64,000 nt of DNA from Spirochaetia bacterium (GTDB lineage: Bacteria; Spirochaetota; Spirochaetia; SZUA-6; Bin103), in the NCBI GenBank assembly GCA_965208575.1, contig CBDBOV010000004.1, positions 448,001 to 512,000 of the forward strand, read 5' to 3'. Under the pieces are notes generated by a model, which did no database searches, was not told where the DNA came from, and saw nothing but the letters and a program-made list of their open reading frames with translations. Positions within the stretch are counted from its first letter, which is position 1; each line of letters opens with the position of its first letter. Positions 11,578 through 15,774 of the stretch are shown piece after piece. The translations under genes were made by a program, and so were the position numbers.

Positions 11578-12735
11578 CTACTGCGCCAGCGTCCCACGAC
11601 CGAGGCGGCGTACGAACTCGGCGGCGGGGAGGATGTCGATGCCGTCGTCGGTGCGGCGGGCGCGCGGTTCCAGGCAGACGACGATGCGCCGGCGAACGGC
11701 GGGATGCTCTTCGGCGAGCGTGCGCAGACCGCGCAGGTGGTCGCGGGTGATGCGGGCGCTCGCCTTTGCCTCCACCGCCAGCTCCATGTCGCCGAGCACG
11801 AAGTCCACCTCGATGCCGCTCGGCAGCCGCCAGTAGGCCAGGTCGAGGTCCCAATCGTGGTACTCGATACCGGCGGACAGCTCGTGAAAGACCCAGTTCT
11901 CGAACGCCTTCCCGTACAGCGGGGCTCCGGGAGTCAGCTCGCCGCGCCGGGTCAAGCGGTTCACCACCCCCACGTCGGCGAAGTAGAACTTCGGGGCACC
12001 GATCACACGGCGCTTGCGCCGCCGGCGGTATGCGTTCAGCCGGCGCCCGAGCAGCGTGTCTTCCAGAATCTCGAAGTATGCCTTGGCAGTGGGGCTCGAC
12101 ACCCCGCACTCGCGTGCGACGTTGGAGAAGTTGACCATCTCCCCGTCGCTGAGTGCGGCGGCGTCCAGGAAGCCGGAAAACGCCGGCAGGTTGCGGACCA
12201 GACCCTCGGCGGCGACCTCCTCGCGCAGGTAGTCGGCGACGTAGGCGTCGAGCAGCCGGCGCGCGCGAGCCGCCTGGTAGATGCGCGGCAGGTAACCGTG
12301 GTTCAGCATCCGGTCCAGGTCGAAGGCGGCGCCCAGTTCGGCGGCGGTGAGACCGCGCAGCTCGTAGCGTACGGCCCGCCCGCCGAGCAAGTTGGCGGCA
12401 CCGCGGCGCACCTTGCGGGCGCTCGATCCGCACAGGGCAAAGTGGTGACCGCGATTCTCGATCAGCCAGTGCACCTCGTCGAGCAGCGCCGGCACCTTCT
12501 GCACCTCGTCGATCACGACCTGCCGCCCGGCGTGCGCCGGCTCCGATGCCAACTCCTCGCGCAGCAGCTCGGGTCGATCGAGGTACCGGCGGAACACCTC
12601 GCTCTTCAGCAGGTCGACCCAGAGCGCATCGGGGTAGTGGCGCCTGAGCAAGGTGCTCTTGCCGGCCTGCCGCGGCCCCCACAGAAAGAAGGTCTCGCGA
12701 CCCGACTCCGGAAGAATCAGCGATCGTTCGAACAT
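11578..12735 (-). CDS. AAA_14 ATPase with DUF4143 domain
   Basis: Walker A GPRQAGKST, Walker B VIDEVQK, LCGSSA, PKFYFADVG, EVDFV..AVEAK. Confidence 0.92.
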   Translation of the reverse strand: MFERSLILPESGRETFFLWGPRQAGKSTLLRRHYPDALWVDLLKSEVFRRYLDRPELLREELASEPAHAGRQVVIDEVQKVPALLDEVHWLIENRGHHFALCGSSARKVRRGAANLLGGRAVRYELRGLTAAELGAAFDLDRMLNHGYLPRIYQAARARRLLDAYVADYLREEVAAEGLVRNLPAFSGFLDAAALSDGEMVNFSNVARECGVSSPTAKAYFEILEDTLLGRRLNAYRRRRKRRVIGAPKFYFADVGVVNRLTRRGELTPGAPLYGKAFENWVFHELSAGIEYHDWDLDLAYWRLPSGIEVDFVLGDMELAVEAKASARITRDHLRGLRTLAEEHPAVRRRIVVCLEPRARRTDDGIDILPAAEFVRRLGRGTLAQ

Positions 12736-12775
12736 GTACTTTAAGATATCATGATAATTTGAAGTACAACATTGG

Positions 12776-13138
12776 CTAGCGGATGTAGTAGCCGGACACC
12801 CGCCACGCTTCGCTGTCCCACATGACGGTGACGGTCTCCACCGCGTTCTTCTTGTTGGCATAGGAGGCTTCGAAGCGAAGGACCCAGTAGCGGCCATCGG
12901 GAGCACCGGGAAGTGTCTCGTGATACTCGGCCGCTGCCACGGAGCGGGACACAAGCCTGCCCATCGGCTCGAGCGCGCCCCGGAGCGCTTGAGCAAGCTG
13001 CTCCTCGGTCACGGCTCCGCGCATCAGCCCGGCCGCGGTCGACCAGCAGGCCGGGTACCCGCCGGCATCGAGCAGACCCAGCCACGCCTGCGCGGCTCCC
13101 AAGGCCTCGTCCCGCTCAGCCACGGGAACACCACCCAC
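12776..13138 (-). CDS. DUF4019 domain protein
   Basis: AQAWLGLLDAGGY..W, TLPGAPDGRY.VLRFEASYANKKNAVETVT, WRVSGYYIR. Confidence 0.85.
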   Translation of the reverse strand: MGGVPVAERDEALGAAQAWLGLLDAGGYPACWSTAAGLMRGAVTEEQLAQALRGALEPMGRLVSRSVAAAEYHETLPGAPDGRYWVLRFEASYANKKNAVETVTVMWDSEAWRVSGYYIR

Positions 13139-13360
13139 GGCAAGCCTGCCCGTCGCCCCCTGTCATCCCGTGAACAGTCTACCCGATTTGTCCACTTCAC
13201 CGCGCAAGCACAGCCCTCCACGCAGCGCCGGCGATGAATTCAGAACTCATTGGTTCAGGTGGTGGCCGTTCGTGGCCCACAATCCGTATATTGAGACCGT
13301 TCGTTCCAGAAATCGTCCGTCCGAGTACGACGGATCCAACGCAGCAACATGGAGTGACTG

Positions 13361-13897
13361 ATGCCGACCGAACAGAACAAGCTTTACCTCTACGAGGCGC
13401 TGGAGTTGCGGGCCGAATACGACGCCCGCATCAAGACCTTCCGCGACTGCCTGCCGGAGACGCGCAGGAACCGGGACCGCCTCGGCATGTACCGCGGTGA
13501 CGAGGGGCAGCTTCGCGCCGCTGACGACTTCGACGTGGCGGCAGTGCAGAAGTCGCTACATTCGCTGGAGCACAAGCGGCGCAAGCTCAACAACGCCATC
13601 CAGCGCGCCAACTACGCCCACACCGTGAGCGCCGGCGGCGAGACGCTTGACTTGAGCGAAGCACTCGAGTTGCGCAAGGGCCTGTCCGACCGCATCGGTG
13701 AGCTGCACACCCAGGGCGTGCAGTCCGCCTACGTGCGCGTCATCTACAAGGAAGACCGCGACATCGTGGAGCCCAACGAAGACACCTTCGCCGCGAGTAT
13801 CGAGCGCTTGGAGTCGGCGCGCCGGGCATTCCGAGACTTGAACCGTGCCCTGCGCGCGGCAAGCTTCACGGTGGTGGTCGACTTCGCGGACGAGTAG
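13361..13897 (+). CDS. DIP1984-like (DUF6847-type) helical protein
   Basis: Two internal repeat pairs: LYLYEALELRAEYDARI / LDLSEALELRKGLSDRI and KLNNAIQRANY / DLNRALRAASF. GGAG SD upstream. Confidence 0.7.
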   Translation: MPTEQNKLYLYEALELRAEYDARIKTFRDCLPETRRNRDRLGMYRGDEGQLRAADDFDVAAVQKSLHSLEHKRRKLNNAIQRANYAHTVSAGGETLDLSEALELRKGLSDRIGELHTQGVQSAYVRVIYKEDRDIVEPNEDTFAASIERLESARRAFRDLNRALRAASFTVVVDFADE

Positions 13898-13914
13898 CGC
13901 GAGCCAACAAACAA

Positions 13915-14112
13915 GAGCAGGAGACGGGGGAGTAAGTGCGAGTCTCCCGGCGACGGGAGCGTAGCCCAGTGGATCGGCGACTGCGACAGCGATAAACCTG
14001 CGGTTTGAAACGCCATAGTTCCCGGCGAAGCCCGGCAGCCAGGCAGTATCTCAGCGTCACAGCAAGCACAGCCCGACAGCGAGTCAGCATCATGACTCCG
14101 AGTCTCCTGCTC
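13915..14112 (+). ncRNA. Putative structured ncRNA directly downstream of the DIP1984-like gene
   Basis: Perfect 11-bp closing stem GAGCAGGAGAC (13915-13925) / GTCTCCTGCTC (14102-14112), extended by GGAGT/ACTCC. Internal CTCCCG-GCGA-CGGGAG hairpin, five periodic CAGC motifs, T-rich tail. Confidence 0.65.
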
Positions 14113-15172
14113 CTTTCTTGGTACCGCCTCGGCACGATGCAACGAGGTCGGATCGGGAGGCGATCAGCCGCTGCAACCGGTCGCGCACACGCGAGCTGCA
14201 GAACGATGCCCGGACCGCGGCGCAAGTGAACCCGCGCAACTCCGCGGCGGAGAATCCGAGCTTCGCGGCGATCGCGTACTCGCGCCCGATGGTGGTGCAA
14301 GCGCGCACCGGATCGTCGGTACAGATCGCCACCGGTACCCCGCGTTCCACGAACCGGCGTATGGGATGGCACTCGTAGCTCTCCACCGCGCCGAGCACCA
14401 CGTTGCTGGTAAGTGCGCACTCGATGGTCACGCCGCGGGCGGCGATCCGGTCGAGCAGGCGCGGGTCGGCGGAGGCGGCGAGCGCATGGCCGATGCGCGT
14501 CAGGCCGGGCACGTCAAGTGCCTCCGCCAAGTGCAGCGCGCAGAACTCGCCCGCGTGGGCGGCGATGCCCAATCCGGCGTCGCGTGCCCGTCCGGCCCAG
14601 CGGTGTACCACCGACCAGTCTGCCGGTTGGTCGTAGGGCACCGGCAGGATGTTCAGCCCGGCCAGGCCGCTCCGGGCAGCGGCCAGGCAGCGCGGCAACA
14701 AGGTGGCGGCCCACTCGTCGGTAACCGGCGCTACCACTAGCGGTACCGCGTGGAATCGCGGATAGCGGTCACGCACGGCGGCCAGGGACGTCGCGAACTT
14801 GTCAAGGAAGTCGTCGCGCAGGATGGTCCGGGCGCCGAACATCACTTCGACCAGGAGAGCGCCGTCTTTCGCTGCTTCGACCAGGACGCGGCAGATACGG
14901 GTTTCGAGATGGTCCTGGTTGCCGTCCACCTCGTCCACCCAGGAACGGGGATACGGCAGGTCGGGGGTCCACGTCTCCAGGCGTGCCATGCCCGGCGCCC
15001 GGTCGCGCATCAGTTCCCGCGCCTTGACCCGCCAGTCGGTGCCGCGTCGCCCGGTGCGCTGCGCGAGCACCTGCTCCAGGCGCGCGCCCGATTCGGCGTG
15101 CACGTGGATGTCCGCCTTCGGCAACGCCGCGATTGCAGGAGCGATCCGGACATCGGAAAGCGGCTCAATCAT
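14090..15172 (-). CDS. Adenosine deaminase family protein
   Basis: LPKADIHVH, AAHAGE, RIGHA, ECALTSN, HPI, ICTDDP; ATGA coupling with the upstream gene. Confidence 0.88.
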   Translation of the reverse strand: MIEPLSDVRIAPAIAALPKADIHVHAESGARLEQVLAQRTGRRGTDWRVKARELMRDRAPGMARLETWTPDLPYPRSWVDEVDGNQDHLETRICRVLVEAAKDGALLVEVMFGARTILRDDFLDKFATSLAAVRDRYPRFHAVPLVVAPVTDEWAATLLPRCLAAARSGLAGLNILPVPYDQPADWSVVHRWAGRARDAGLGIAAHAGEFCALHLAEALDVPGLTRIGHALAASADPRLLDRIAARGVTIECALTSNVVLGAVESYECHPIRRFVERGVPVAICTDDPVRACTTIGREYAIAAKLGFSAAELRGFTCAAVRASFCSSRVRDRLQRLIASRSDLVASCRGGTKKGAGDSES

Positions 15173-15774
15173 AGGGCCCGGAGCACGCGAGAGCCGAGGG
15201 AGGTCAGAGTGTAGCCGGTGTCGTGGCTGATGGTGAGGCCGAGGGCCTTCAACTTGCGCACGTTGCTCTTGAAGGGAGCAGTTTCCCGCCCAAGCTGCGG
15301 CGCCAGCCGGGAGGCCGCCACCCGGGGATGGGCGTCGATCAGGGCCAGCGTGGCGCCGGTCCACGGGCCCGCGCGGCTGCGGGCGTCCATGTTGCGCAGC
15401 CGGGCCAGCAGGTCTTGCAGCACGTCCTCGGCGACGTCGGCAGACACGTCAGCCACCGGGGTGCGCGGGTCGGGAAGGTAGCGAAACCGAATCTCGAACA
15501 CGGTGTCGGGATGATGACCGGCGCCCGCCGGGGAAAGCTGCCGCAACAGGGCGTCCCGAGACGCGAACCCGGACGCGCGCGCCGCGGCATCGGTGATCTG
15601 CGCCACGGGCGCTTCGCGCACGTGGTCCACCGCGACCACGCCGTCGGCGTTGAGCCGGTACCGGTTGCCCACCTTCACGCGGGCGCGCTTCCAGGCCCGG
15701 TACGTGACAGTGATCGCACCGTTCGCTATCGGTTCGTGAAACGAGTATTTGAAGAGCACGGCGGCTATCGCCAC
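15169..15774 (-). CDS. ASCH/PUA-like domain protein with C-terminal winged helix
   Basis: GAITVTYRAWKRARVKVG, ITDAAARASGF, FKSNVRKLKALGLTIS..GYTLTSLG. Confidence 0.7.
   Translation of the reverse strand: MAIAAVLFKYSFHEPIANGAITVTYRAWKRARVKVGNRYRLNADGVVAVDHVREAPVAQITDAAARASGFASRDALLRQLSPAGAGHHPDTVFEIRFRYLPDPRTPVADVSADVAEDVLQDLLARLRNMDARSRAGPWTGATLALIDAHPRVAASRLAPQLGRETAPFKSNVRKLKALGLTISHDTGYTLTSLGSRVLRAL

Follow-up and report, generated by a model that had tools for sequence, protein, structure and literature searches.

The 64,000-nucleotide (nt) stretch of DNA analysed here, referred to as the window, comes from a contig of a Spirochaetia bacterium (CBDBOV010000004.1, positions 448,001 to 512,000 of the forward strand) and contains a compact module in which a protein-coding gene is followed by a structured RNA element. 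The gene occupies positions 13361-13897 of the forward (+) strand, with its stop codon TAG at 13895-13897, and encodes a protein of 178 amino acids (aa); its open reading frame (ORF) gives a borderline match to the DUF6847 family, and the modelled protein has the DIP1984 (3KDQ) fold. It is separated by a 17-nt spacer of non-conserved sequence (13898-13914, +) from the RNA element of about 198 nt (13915-14112, +), whose extent is supported by a covariance model match, by the sharp edges of the conserved block among relatives, and by contigs from two sequencing runs. The gene lies directly upstream of this same-strand RNA of about 190 nt, and the pairing is kept in many phyla wherever the 3' end of the gene can be inspected. 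As judged by sequence comparison, the gene-RNA pair is widespread and single-copy, and its RNA, on the strand of the gene, is covarying and rich in predicted pseudoknots. The module is previously undescribed: its RNA matches no family in Rfam 15, and neither the family names nor the motif terms tried occur in the literature searched.

The element is bounded by a long-range helix, P1, whose arms form a perfect 11-bp inverted repeat (13915-13925 and 14102-14112, +, with the cores GGAGAC and GUCUCC). An earlier note on this DNA, made from its letters, had described such a stem 17 nt past the stop codon, and it can be read directly in the window, where the family covariance model R1 matches 13917-14110 with 131.1 bits (E-value (E) 6e-35). 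The 3' arm is followed by a T-rich run at 14113-14119, so that the tail of the earlier description (CCTTTCTT) is present, as a modest run. Within P1, the reported extension GGAGT/ACTCC is conserved as helix P1b (13929-13933 and 14095-14099, +), which reads GGAGU/ACUCC in the window and GGAGC/GCUCC in most relatives, itself a two-sided change; 100% of its alignment cells are paired and three of its five pairs show two-sided changes. The next helix, P2 (13938-13965, +), consists of invariant GC/GC pairs (13938-39 with 13964-65) around a hairpin capped by a GNRA loop (GCGA, 13944-13959). This hairpin, with the arms CTCCCG and CGGGAG, had also been recognised in the earlier note and turns out to be the best-covarying helix of the family, with three or four pair types per position. 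It is followed by a CAG (13967-69) and hairpin P3 (about 13973-78 with 13989-93; together 13967-13993, +), which covaries between GC and AU, and then by a GGU (14002-04), hairpin P4 (about 14007-11 with 14018-22, its pairs showing three to four types) and an invariant CCGG at 14022-25 (together 14002-14025, +). Two pseudoknots are proposed, namely PK1, between CAG 13967-69 and CUG 13981-83 in the P3 loop (+), and PK2, between GGU 14002-04 and GCC 14012-14 in the P4 loop (+), the latter being 92.5% paired with four pair types at one of its pairs. Three smaller stems of the earlier description fared less well in the family alignment: the CGTAG/CTGCG stem is unsupported, its bases belonging to P2a and the CAG/CUG loop pairing; the AAACC-TGC-GGTTT hairpin is specific to the window or its clade and has no support from the family alignment; and the CCGG..CCGG element is not conserved as a hairpin, although its first CCGG is the conserved one at 14022-14025. 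The remainder of the element is a 66-nt A/C-rich loop (14029-14094, +) that carries AGC on an 8-nt lattice with seven of eight slots filled.

In the family as a whole, the closing helix P1/P1b encloses a loop of about 64 nt and a core of about 110 nt, the latter containing the GNRA hairpin and two others whose loops take part in pairing. The proposed structure comprises 38 pairs in seven helices: P1 (core GGAGAC/GUCUCC, with outer pairs that vary), P1b (GGAGC/GCUCC), P2 (the GNRA-capped hairpin together with a GC/GC clamp that is invariant), the short hairpins P3 and P4, and the two loop pairings, in which PK1 joins CAG before P3 to CUG in the P3 loop and PK2 joins GGG before P4 to CCC in the P4 loop. 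RNAalifold applied to 41 sequences returned 26 pairs, 17 of them with compensatory changes. In a structure-blind MAFFT alignment of 40 sequences (A3), from which the divergent locus L095 (63.3 bits) was left out, 89.8% of cells were paired compared with 30-43% when the partners were slid by 1-3 columns; two-sided changes occurred in 23 of the 38 pairs, and none of 500 shuffles reached any of five measures. A larger alignment fitted to R1 (A7), consisting of 58 sequences drawn from 148 full-length matches after removal of those above about 92% similarity and of L083 and L095, had 92.8% of cells in the 38 pairs paired (30-44% when slid) and two-sided changes in 28 of them. P1, P1b, P2, P3, P4 and one PK2 pair each show three or four pair types, and seven of the nine P1 pairs change on both sides; the closing stem thus covaries in both alignments, which is the behaviour that the earlier note had proposed to look for. 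Because many U-G and G-U pairs are retained, the forward strand is the RNA strand. A small ORF within the RNA was considered and rejected: the candidate AUG is not conserved, being missing in the window, and the conservation shows no 3-nt period.

The loop carries the most unusual feature of the element. The earlier note had counted five CAGC motifs; the periodicity is real and larger than that, consisting of AGC on an eight-slot, 8-nt lattice that stays in register across phyla. In the window, AGC begins at 14029, 14037, 14053, 14061, 14070, 14078 and 14086, and the slot at 14045 holds AGT. A strict pattern of four AGC-N5 units finds no match because one slot is AGT and one gap is 6 nt, while the pattern AGC-N5-AGC-N6-AGC-N5-AGC-N5-AGC, written after the sequence had been seen, occurs once in the 64-kb window and in none of 100 shuffles. 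Among 58 sequences, the loop from CCGGAAA to P1b measures 59-66 nt (median 64) and is 65% A+C. AGC is its commonest triplet (302 occurrences, with 203 for the next, GCA), at a mean of 5.21 per loop compared with 3.98 +/- 0.11 in 200 dinucleotide shuffles (maximum 4.36), and the distances between AGC pairs peak at 8-9, 15-17, 24-25, 32-33, 40-41, 47-49 and 54-57. In 34 non-redundant sequences, AGC occupies loop positions 0, 15, 22, 30, 39, 47 and 55 in 85, 50, 29, 74, 50, 53 and 88% of cases, and off-slot occupancy is at most 6% except at position 34 (15%); such figures describe in-register conservation among related sequences and not independent events. Nearly all eight slots are filled in the clade of the window, and every second slot in other clades. 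The spacers between AGC triplets are not conserved, the conservation of the loop has no 3-nt period, no covarying helix was found within it, and its predicted unpaired fraction is 0.55 compared with 0.36 for the rest of the RNA.

Linkage between gene and RNA is evident at every scale of sampling. Among 61 genomes (that of the window and 60 relatives), the protein occurs in 10, in one of them as a fragment only, and the downstream DNA in 11, namely the same 10 and one with a remnant. In an alignment of nine of these loci, the conserved block coincides with the element, arm to arm, between unrelated flanks, and the closing stem changes from A-U to G-C between two genera (g1 and g2). Scanning a single genome of each species yielded 80 loci, 68 of them with the 3' end of the gene; the record titles of the 80 name Latescibacterota, Desulfobacterota-type, Gemmatimonadota, Acidobacteriota, Verrucomicrobiota/Victivallales/Kiritimatiellia, Rokubacteria, Lindowbacteria, Nitrospinota, Binatia and Hydrogenedentota, as well as some archaeal bins on short contigs. 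An R1 match lies just downstream and on the same strand in all 68 loci holding the gene 3' end: 63 are full-length matches of at least 109 bits, two are clipped by contig ends, and the exceptions are the divergent L095, L039 with an insertion before the RNA, and the deletion form L083. Of 80 metagenome loci, 79 have the RNA, and the contig of the 80th ends at the last codon of the gene. The model starts a median of 8 nt after the stop codon, at a distance of 1-23 nt in 140 of 150 loci. When 121 genomes from a different phylum were sampled, the RNA was present in 16, the protein or a piece of it in 17, and both in 15; the sole RNA-only case is a weak remnant (59.9 bits), and the two protein-only cases are N-terminal fragments. 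Conserved structure downstream of homologues, which the earlier note had made the test of its proposal, is therefore found with the gene across phyla. The opposite outcome that it had envisaged, a dispersed miniature inverted-repeat transposable element (MITE), does not agree with the copy number: the genome of the window contains one full match to the element, its remaining 19 matches being 15-34 nt long with E of at least 0.015, and five diverse other genomes have one R1 match each.

Upstream regions are unrelated between loci, each having its own promoter-like and Shine-Dalgarno sequences; together with the sharp block ends, this defines a conserved unit that begins with the start codon and ends with the P1 3' arm. 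The same lack of relationship led to the idea that the CUCC-rich 3' arms of the RNA pair with the Shine-Dalgarno region of the gene being dropped. At 12 loci of a low-GC genus in the same phylum as the window, no such RNA lies downstream of canonical DUF6847 genes. Four of these loci (L118, L120, L123 and L124) have in common a stretch of about 100 nt there that is flanked by ACGCACGG ... CCGTGCG-type inverted repeats, with CTTGGGTGGGCA after it, and is unrelated to R1. Insertions between the stop codon and the RNA occur in several loci, measuring 135-187 nt in L039, L139, L161 and L082 and 41-58 nt in L043, L075, L178 and L197. Furthermore, near-identical modules are found on short contigs assigned to very different taxon bins (L049, L050, L051, L054, L062, L065 and L096), including Bathyarchaeota, Thermoplasmata and Methanophagaceae; these may reflect a mis-binned abundant sediment bacterium or horizontal transfer, and archaeal labels are doubtful on such short contigs.

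By sequence, the encoded protein is a borderline match to an uncharacterised family. Pfam DUF6847 (PF20935) scores the ORF at 26.3 bits, just under its gathering cut-off of 27, and at 34.6 bits in a six-frame search of the genome, over a stretch reaching upstream through a TGA. NCBIfam DIP1984_fam (NF038048) gives 30.5 bits against a curated cut-off of 70, below the family threshold, and aligns only residues 9-86 of the protein, onto profile positions 74-146. A search of 5.8 billion proteins returned 639 homologues of similar length, most of which bear a precomputed PF20935 annotation (PF20935.3). These homologues are about 60% identical across phyla, even in metagenome-assembled genomes labelled Chloroflexi or Latescibacteria, and their invariant residues include an EALE(L)R motif that occurs twice and many Arg, Lys, Asn and Gln. 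An AlphaFold2 model built on 76 sequences (predicted local distance difference test score 89.5, predicted template modelling (TM) score 0.76) contains a unit of strand, long helix, helix and beta-hairpin twice, and the two halves of the protein align with each other, in agreement with the internal two-fold repeat seen in the earlier note. Foldseek matches the model in the PDB to 3kdq_A with E 7.5e-4, probability 1.00 and TM scores of 0.69/0.79; all remaining matches have E of at least 0.27, and the next ones are unrelated coiled coils. On the strength of this model, the 178-aa protein shares the DIP1984 (3KDQ) fold. The 3KDQ entry, released in 2009 with four chains of one sequence, is a Corynebacterium diphtheriae protein whose function is uncharacterised. 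A search of the PDB by sequence with the single protein as query gave no match, and the protein family profile reaches 3KDQ only at E 0.2. Designation of the protein as DIP1984-like thus stands with respect to the fold, while the sequence match of the ORF itself is slightly below the Pfam cut-off and well below that of NCBIfam. PADLOC matched nothing in the protein, no relative was found in viral contigs, and no longer or fused forms were found at E <= 1e-5, which is weak evidence.

The RNA belongs to no described Rfam family, in keeping with the earlier suggestion of an undescribed system. A scan of positions 12800-14600 of the window against Rfam 15 with permissive filters returned only sul1, on the opposite strand, at 17.1 bits against 36.2 (E 3.8); eight diverse loci gave no match at gathering scores, and the best-scoring member, L049, gave none at E <= 10. 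At the level of titles and abstracts, the literature searched contains no mention of 'DIP1984', 'DUF6847', 'PF20935', 'NF038048' or 'IPR047741'. At that same level, 'septicolysin' appears solely as an annotation label, two matches to '3KDQ' are unrelated papers, and no single paper combines 'Latescibacter', 'RNA motif' and 'covariation'.

Assembled sequencing runs offer a weak first indication of a transcript. An index search returned two runs with a small share of the stretch and another four, of DNA type and all from a single sample. The metatranscriptomic run X2 contains a 188-nt contig that lies over its whole length on 13915-14100 at a depth of 23.5, together with a 151-nt contig from the coding region on 13671-13816 at a depth of 2.1; run X1, from another study and only presumed to be RNA, contains a 183-nt contig on 13925-14107 at a depth of 17.8. 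The DNA-type runs read across both ends of the element; those designated X3 and X6 hold contigs of several related strains, maybe from the sample of origin, and lend no independent support. The discrete transcript that the earlier note had called for therefore has a weak sign in its favour, in that contigs coincide with the element in two runs, although contigs cannot prove ends. Together, these data are a weak hint of a discrete RNA species of about 190 nt that outlasts the coding part.

Several natural variants separate the parts of the module. In genome G041 (L109:2969-3186, G041:C105), an intact RNA (165.5 bits) follows a gene cut to about 12 codons (MPDE..KL..), with the promoter-like region and the Shine-Dalgarno sequence kept before the stub; an ORF that reads as the start of an IS66-like gene, a label taken from the sequence only, lies about 850 nt downstream of the RNA. 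At L104:2998-3476 (the same place as G322:C158), an in-frame protein of 93 aa joins residues 1-43 to 128-178 and has one repeat unit instead of two, with an intact RNA (124.6 bits) adjoining; this may be either a functional protein of half the usual size or the product of a recent deletion. At L083:2959-3605, the whole 5' core is missing, and an intact gene stands immediately before AAAGC, after which come the AGC loop and the P1b and P1 3' arms. In other remnants, gene and RNA have mostly both decayed.

No gene besides the module's own gene and its antisense shadows is conserved across taxa when ORFs from 68 loci are clustered, which bears out the earlier view of a stand-alone module; extra members in the gene's own ORF cluster, which looked like second copies, are linkage noise. 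Neighbours in the window encode Fic, AAA_14-DUF4143, DUF4019, adenosine deaminase, HNH and PhyH proteins, and those at other loci include DUF2442, HTH, PDDEXK (YhcG), ERCC4, an IS200-type transposase and AspRS, among others. Sequences of 146-152 aa encoded by ORFs downstream of the RNA at several loci are not homologous across phyla and were set aside. The 6.5-Mb genome of the window shows a striking expansion of AAA_14-DUF4143 ATPases, with 44 DUF4143 matches, one of which lies just upstream of the module (11578-12996, reverse (-) strand) by chance. A link between such ATPases and the module was rejected: they occur near it in 9 of 160 loci (619 kb), as expected by chance given 44 such genes in that one genome. 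The convergent ORF of the adenosine-deaminase family (14090-15364, -) lies outside the module, its last codons entering the 3' arms of the RNA. Of its 424 residues, the last 23 lie beyond the Pfam A_deaminase domain, which extends to residue 401, and the ORF stops within those arms (14090-14160, -). Among the relatives, the downstream deaminase gene is common only to G006; the overlap, seen only in these two genomes, probably reflects the chance position of the first stop codon. In loci L085-L093 (Verrucomicrobiota/Victivallales-type), an upstream gene end and a conserved promoter-like stretch TTGACA ... GGTGTAGGTAGTACAC are common to the loci, and the upstream ORF of L085 (L085:2544-2912) is an HTH_31/HTH_3 protein, which may be a clade-specific regulator.

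A different ATPase is a more suggestive neighbour. In 10 of the 160 loci, representing about four lineages, the module has beside it, on its own strand, a classical AAA+ ATPase (PF00004, 460-508 aa, 38-60% identical between lineages) whose N-terminal domain is of unknown family. Two of the ten have it upstream and eight have it downstream; the loci are L066:4316-5833, L090:3783-5309, L140/L146 (upstream of the gene) and L145/L151/L153/L154/L156/L160 (downstream). Among the 61 relatives, it occurs in four, all with the module or a remnant, and six genomes with an intact module lack it. The genome of the window encodes an unlinked orthologue (50% identical) on another contig (G000:C5:5476-6810, outside the window), and R1 finds nothing at the loci of unlinked AAA orthologues. 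The protein matches the anti-phage models IetA/IteA weakly, far under their cut-offs. This ATPase may be a facultative third component, and its association is best taken as a lead and not a finding.

Taken together, a specific protein-RNA particle is the best explanation of the module, held with roughly even confidence. According to this model, gene and RNA would be made as one transcript, as suggested by the gap of about 8 nt and by the unrelated promoter region that each locus has of its own. The structured 3' part would then persist as a discrete RNA of about 190 nt, through processing or selective survival, and the protein would bind the AGC lattice as an oligomer whose subunits have two repeats each, so that four of them could, for example, serve the eight slots. 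The loop is envisaged to wrap around a protein body of fixed size, as TRAP or HutP read spaced triplets, with the folded core and closing helix holding it in shape and protecting the RNA, which would in turn titrate, template or restrain its own protein by the logic of sponge RNAs or type III antitoxins, outside those families. A loop of constant length, triplets that keep their register while the spacers vary, the two-fold repeat of the protein, its single-repeat variant and the core-less variant with its lattice kept all fit this oligomer-lattice picture without proving it. A terminating ribosome covers bases just past the stop codon; with the stop 4-13 nt before P1 in most copies, it would cover the 5' arm of P1, and on the usual ribosome footprint translation and RNA folding are probably coupled. 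A more far-reaching proposal, which is less likely than not, is that the module represents a new class of autonomous ribonucleoprotein (RNP) in which an 8-nt AGC 'ruler' in a closed loop measures out a fixed number of the module's own DIP1984-fold proteins, the double-pseudoknot core serves as clamp and shield, and the particle, in some lineages serviced by the adjacent AAA+ ATPase, is a switchable store or antidote with a logic like that of type III toxin-antitoxin (TA) or defence systems.

A number of observations weigh against a specific particle or weaken its support. The protein family is near neutral (median isoelectric point 6.4, net charge about -1), and no known RNA-binding domain was found in the protein by Pfam, NCBIfam or PADLOC. 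The intact RNA beside a destroyed gene in G041 may indicate that the RNA works without the protein. With respect to structure, folding energy does not distinguish the window copy from shuffles (z -1.17, 26 of 200 shuffles being as good or better), nor does it do so for either strand (z -1.17 and -1.48), and the case for structure therefore rests on comparison and not on energy. The comparison has its own limits, since the sequences are related and tallies over them make changes look more independent than they are. All 58 sequences are paired at PK1, but it is nearly invariant, which means that covariation is no proof of it and that it stays a proposal. The junctions AAGUGCGA, AUAGCCCAG and UCCGGAAAAGC are almost invariant across phyla, so that pairing there is unproven, and a scan for extra covarying helices gave nothing beyond rival pairings, indistinguishable from one another, between invariant segments rich in G or in C. 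Finally, the X1 and X2 contigs each differ from the window at 10 places and therefore come from relatives, contigs cannot show the true ends, strand or level of an RNA, and X1 is only guessed to be RNA.

Among the alternatives, a purely cis-acting device of the 3' untranslated region (UTR) would dispense with binding by the protein altogether, the element acting as a protection against 3' exonucleases, a terminator or both, or as a sensor controlling how the upstream gene is translated or its transcript decays. Such a device would sit where the element does, immediately past the stop codon at a median gap of 8 nt; many copies have a T-rich run after P1, decay has mostly affected gene and RNA jointly, and invariant junctions and pseudoknots also suit a ligand-binding RNA. 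It is nevertheless considered unlikely. Terminators and stabilisers need neither some 190 nt that are nearly invariant from Spirochaetota to Verrucomicrobiota nor a fixed-length loop with an 8-nt triplet lattice, and canonical DUF6847 genes manage without the element. As an intrinsic terminator it is poorly suited, the closing helix spanning 176 nt and many copies having no U-tract, and a promoter and terminator consensus scan of positions 13000-14500 called no site. The RNA is also intact where the gene is gone, in G041, and the contigs of the two runs (one an RNA library, one guessed to be RNA) equal the element and not the mRNA. A reading that turns instead on the RNA as the main actor, trans-acting or catalytic (cutting itself at the 5' edge, or using the AGC triplets as seeds) with the protein as chaperone or passenger, draws on the same invariant junction nucleotides and pseudoknotted fold, on the intact RNA of G041, and on contig 5' ends at the start of P1 when transcription must begin upstream of the gene. 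Set against this are the absence of any ribozyme or small RNA (sRNA) family match in Rfam, the virtual absence of the RNA from places without the gene or a remnant of it, and a protein conserved as much as the RNA; among the readings that involve an RNA product, it is given the lowest credence.

Toxicity of the free protein, neutralised by a stable 3' RNA through the AGC lattice, would make the module a type III-like TA or abortive-infection pair. This idea accords with a stand-alone two-part module that is patchy across phyla and leaves frequent remnants, and with variable neighbourhoods containing Fic, HNH, PDDEXK and IS200-type genes. RNA occurs without the gene in G041, the sole intact gene beside a damaged RNA (L083) keeps the lattice, and sequencing depth is higher for the contig of the RNA than for that of the coding region, which is weak evidence. 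The earlier note had offered a type III TA-like system as an example, but two defining features of type III systems were looked for and not found. No ToxN/AbiQ, CptN or TenpN-type endoribonuclease was matched by Pfam, NCBIfam or PADLOC, nor does one appear in the Foldseek PDB list, and the RNA lies downstream of the gene and not upstream, with no array of repeats of about 35 nt (Tandem Repeats Finder reports no tandem repeat at 13850-14200). In addition, the module was not found in viral contigs, and some 60% identity across phyla is unusual for fast-evolving defence genes. A TA-like pair is accordingly rated as improbable, a little below the cis-acting device and above the reading centred on the RNA. 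The last alternative, a DNA-level feature (a MITE, recombination site or transposon end) or a chance inverted repeat, could appeal to the 11-bp terminal inverted repeats and to the sharp boundaries against non-conserved flanks; it is practically excluded by the single copy in each genome tested, by covariation that keeps G-U pairs valid on one strand only, by the fixed orientation that the element always has after one gene, and by its presence in an RNA library.

To our knowledge, widely distributed complex bacterial RNAs of unknown function are rare, and past examples such as OLE, ROOL, GOLLD and raiA each opened a line of research. In the present case, a fixed-length loop with a triplet lattice beside an always-linked two-repeat protein provides an unusually explicit clue to mechanism, and the small size of the module (760 bp) makes binding, stoichiometry and structure directly testable. 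If the protein-RNA particle is real, it would provide the first molecular function for the uncharacterised DIP1984/DUF6847/'septicolysin' fold; if the RNA neutralises or stores the protein, the logic of RNA antitoxins or RNA sponges would be extended to a protein fold and an RNA architecture not previously associated with it.

The module can be compared with several known systems. With the DIP1984/DUF6847 family, it shares the fold of 3KDQ, a borderline DUF6847 score and the PF20935 annotation of most homologues, but its subfamily is longer (177-181 aa), much more conserved and below the NCBIfam cut-off, and the canonical members examined (12 loci) have no downstream RNA. Type III TA systems (ToxIN, CptIN and TenpIN) are presented in the abstracts of three papers as small autonomous pairs of a protein and a noncoding RNA whose repeated units bind the protein (PMC8860590, PMC3401426, PMC13682666). 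The module, too, is a small autonomous pair of this kind. In type III systems, however, an endoribonuclease serves as the toxin, and the RNA, encoded upstream as tandem repeats, is cut into units, whereas the protein of the module has another fold and its RNA is a single folded domain, downstream of the gene, with 3-nt motifs on an 8-nt lattice.

In the TRAP-trp leader and HutP-hut RNA complexes, regularly spaced triplets are read by identical subunits of an oligomer, and the RNA wraps the protein. Identical triplets, regular spacing and non-conserved spacers are likewise features of the module (in 34 and 58 non-redundant sequences); unlike TRAP and HutP, to which it is not homologous, it has a spacing of 8 nt and not about 5-7, and its lattice lies in a closed loop at the 3' end of its own mRNA, whereas theirs lie in the 5' leaders of target genes. 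CsrB/RsmZ (with GGA motifs) and CrcZ (with A-rich motifs) are single RNAs that carry many copies of a short motif and titrate a protein, and the many motif copies of the module would similarly suit the sequestering of several copies of one protein. Their motifs are in hairpin loops or irregularly placed and the RNAs are encoded by separate genes, whereas the module has a strict lattice in an RNA fused to the gene of its presumed partner. Known 3'-UTR-derived sRNAs are short, Hfq-dependent seed RNAs of narrow lineages. The RNA of the module is similarly located at the 3' end of an mRNA and seems to persist as a shorter species whose end is the 3' structure of that mRNA (on weak evidence), but it is a 190-nt pseudoknotted domain conserved across phyla. 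OLE RNA with OapA and Y RNA with Rsr are cases in which a complex conserved noncoding RNA is tied to a dedicated protein. Although the module involves another protein family and Rfam scans reveal no sequence or model similarity to these RNAs, it resembles them in consisting of a complex, conserved RNA that is genetically tied to a protein of unassigned role.

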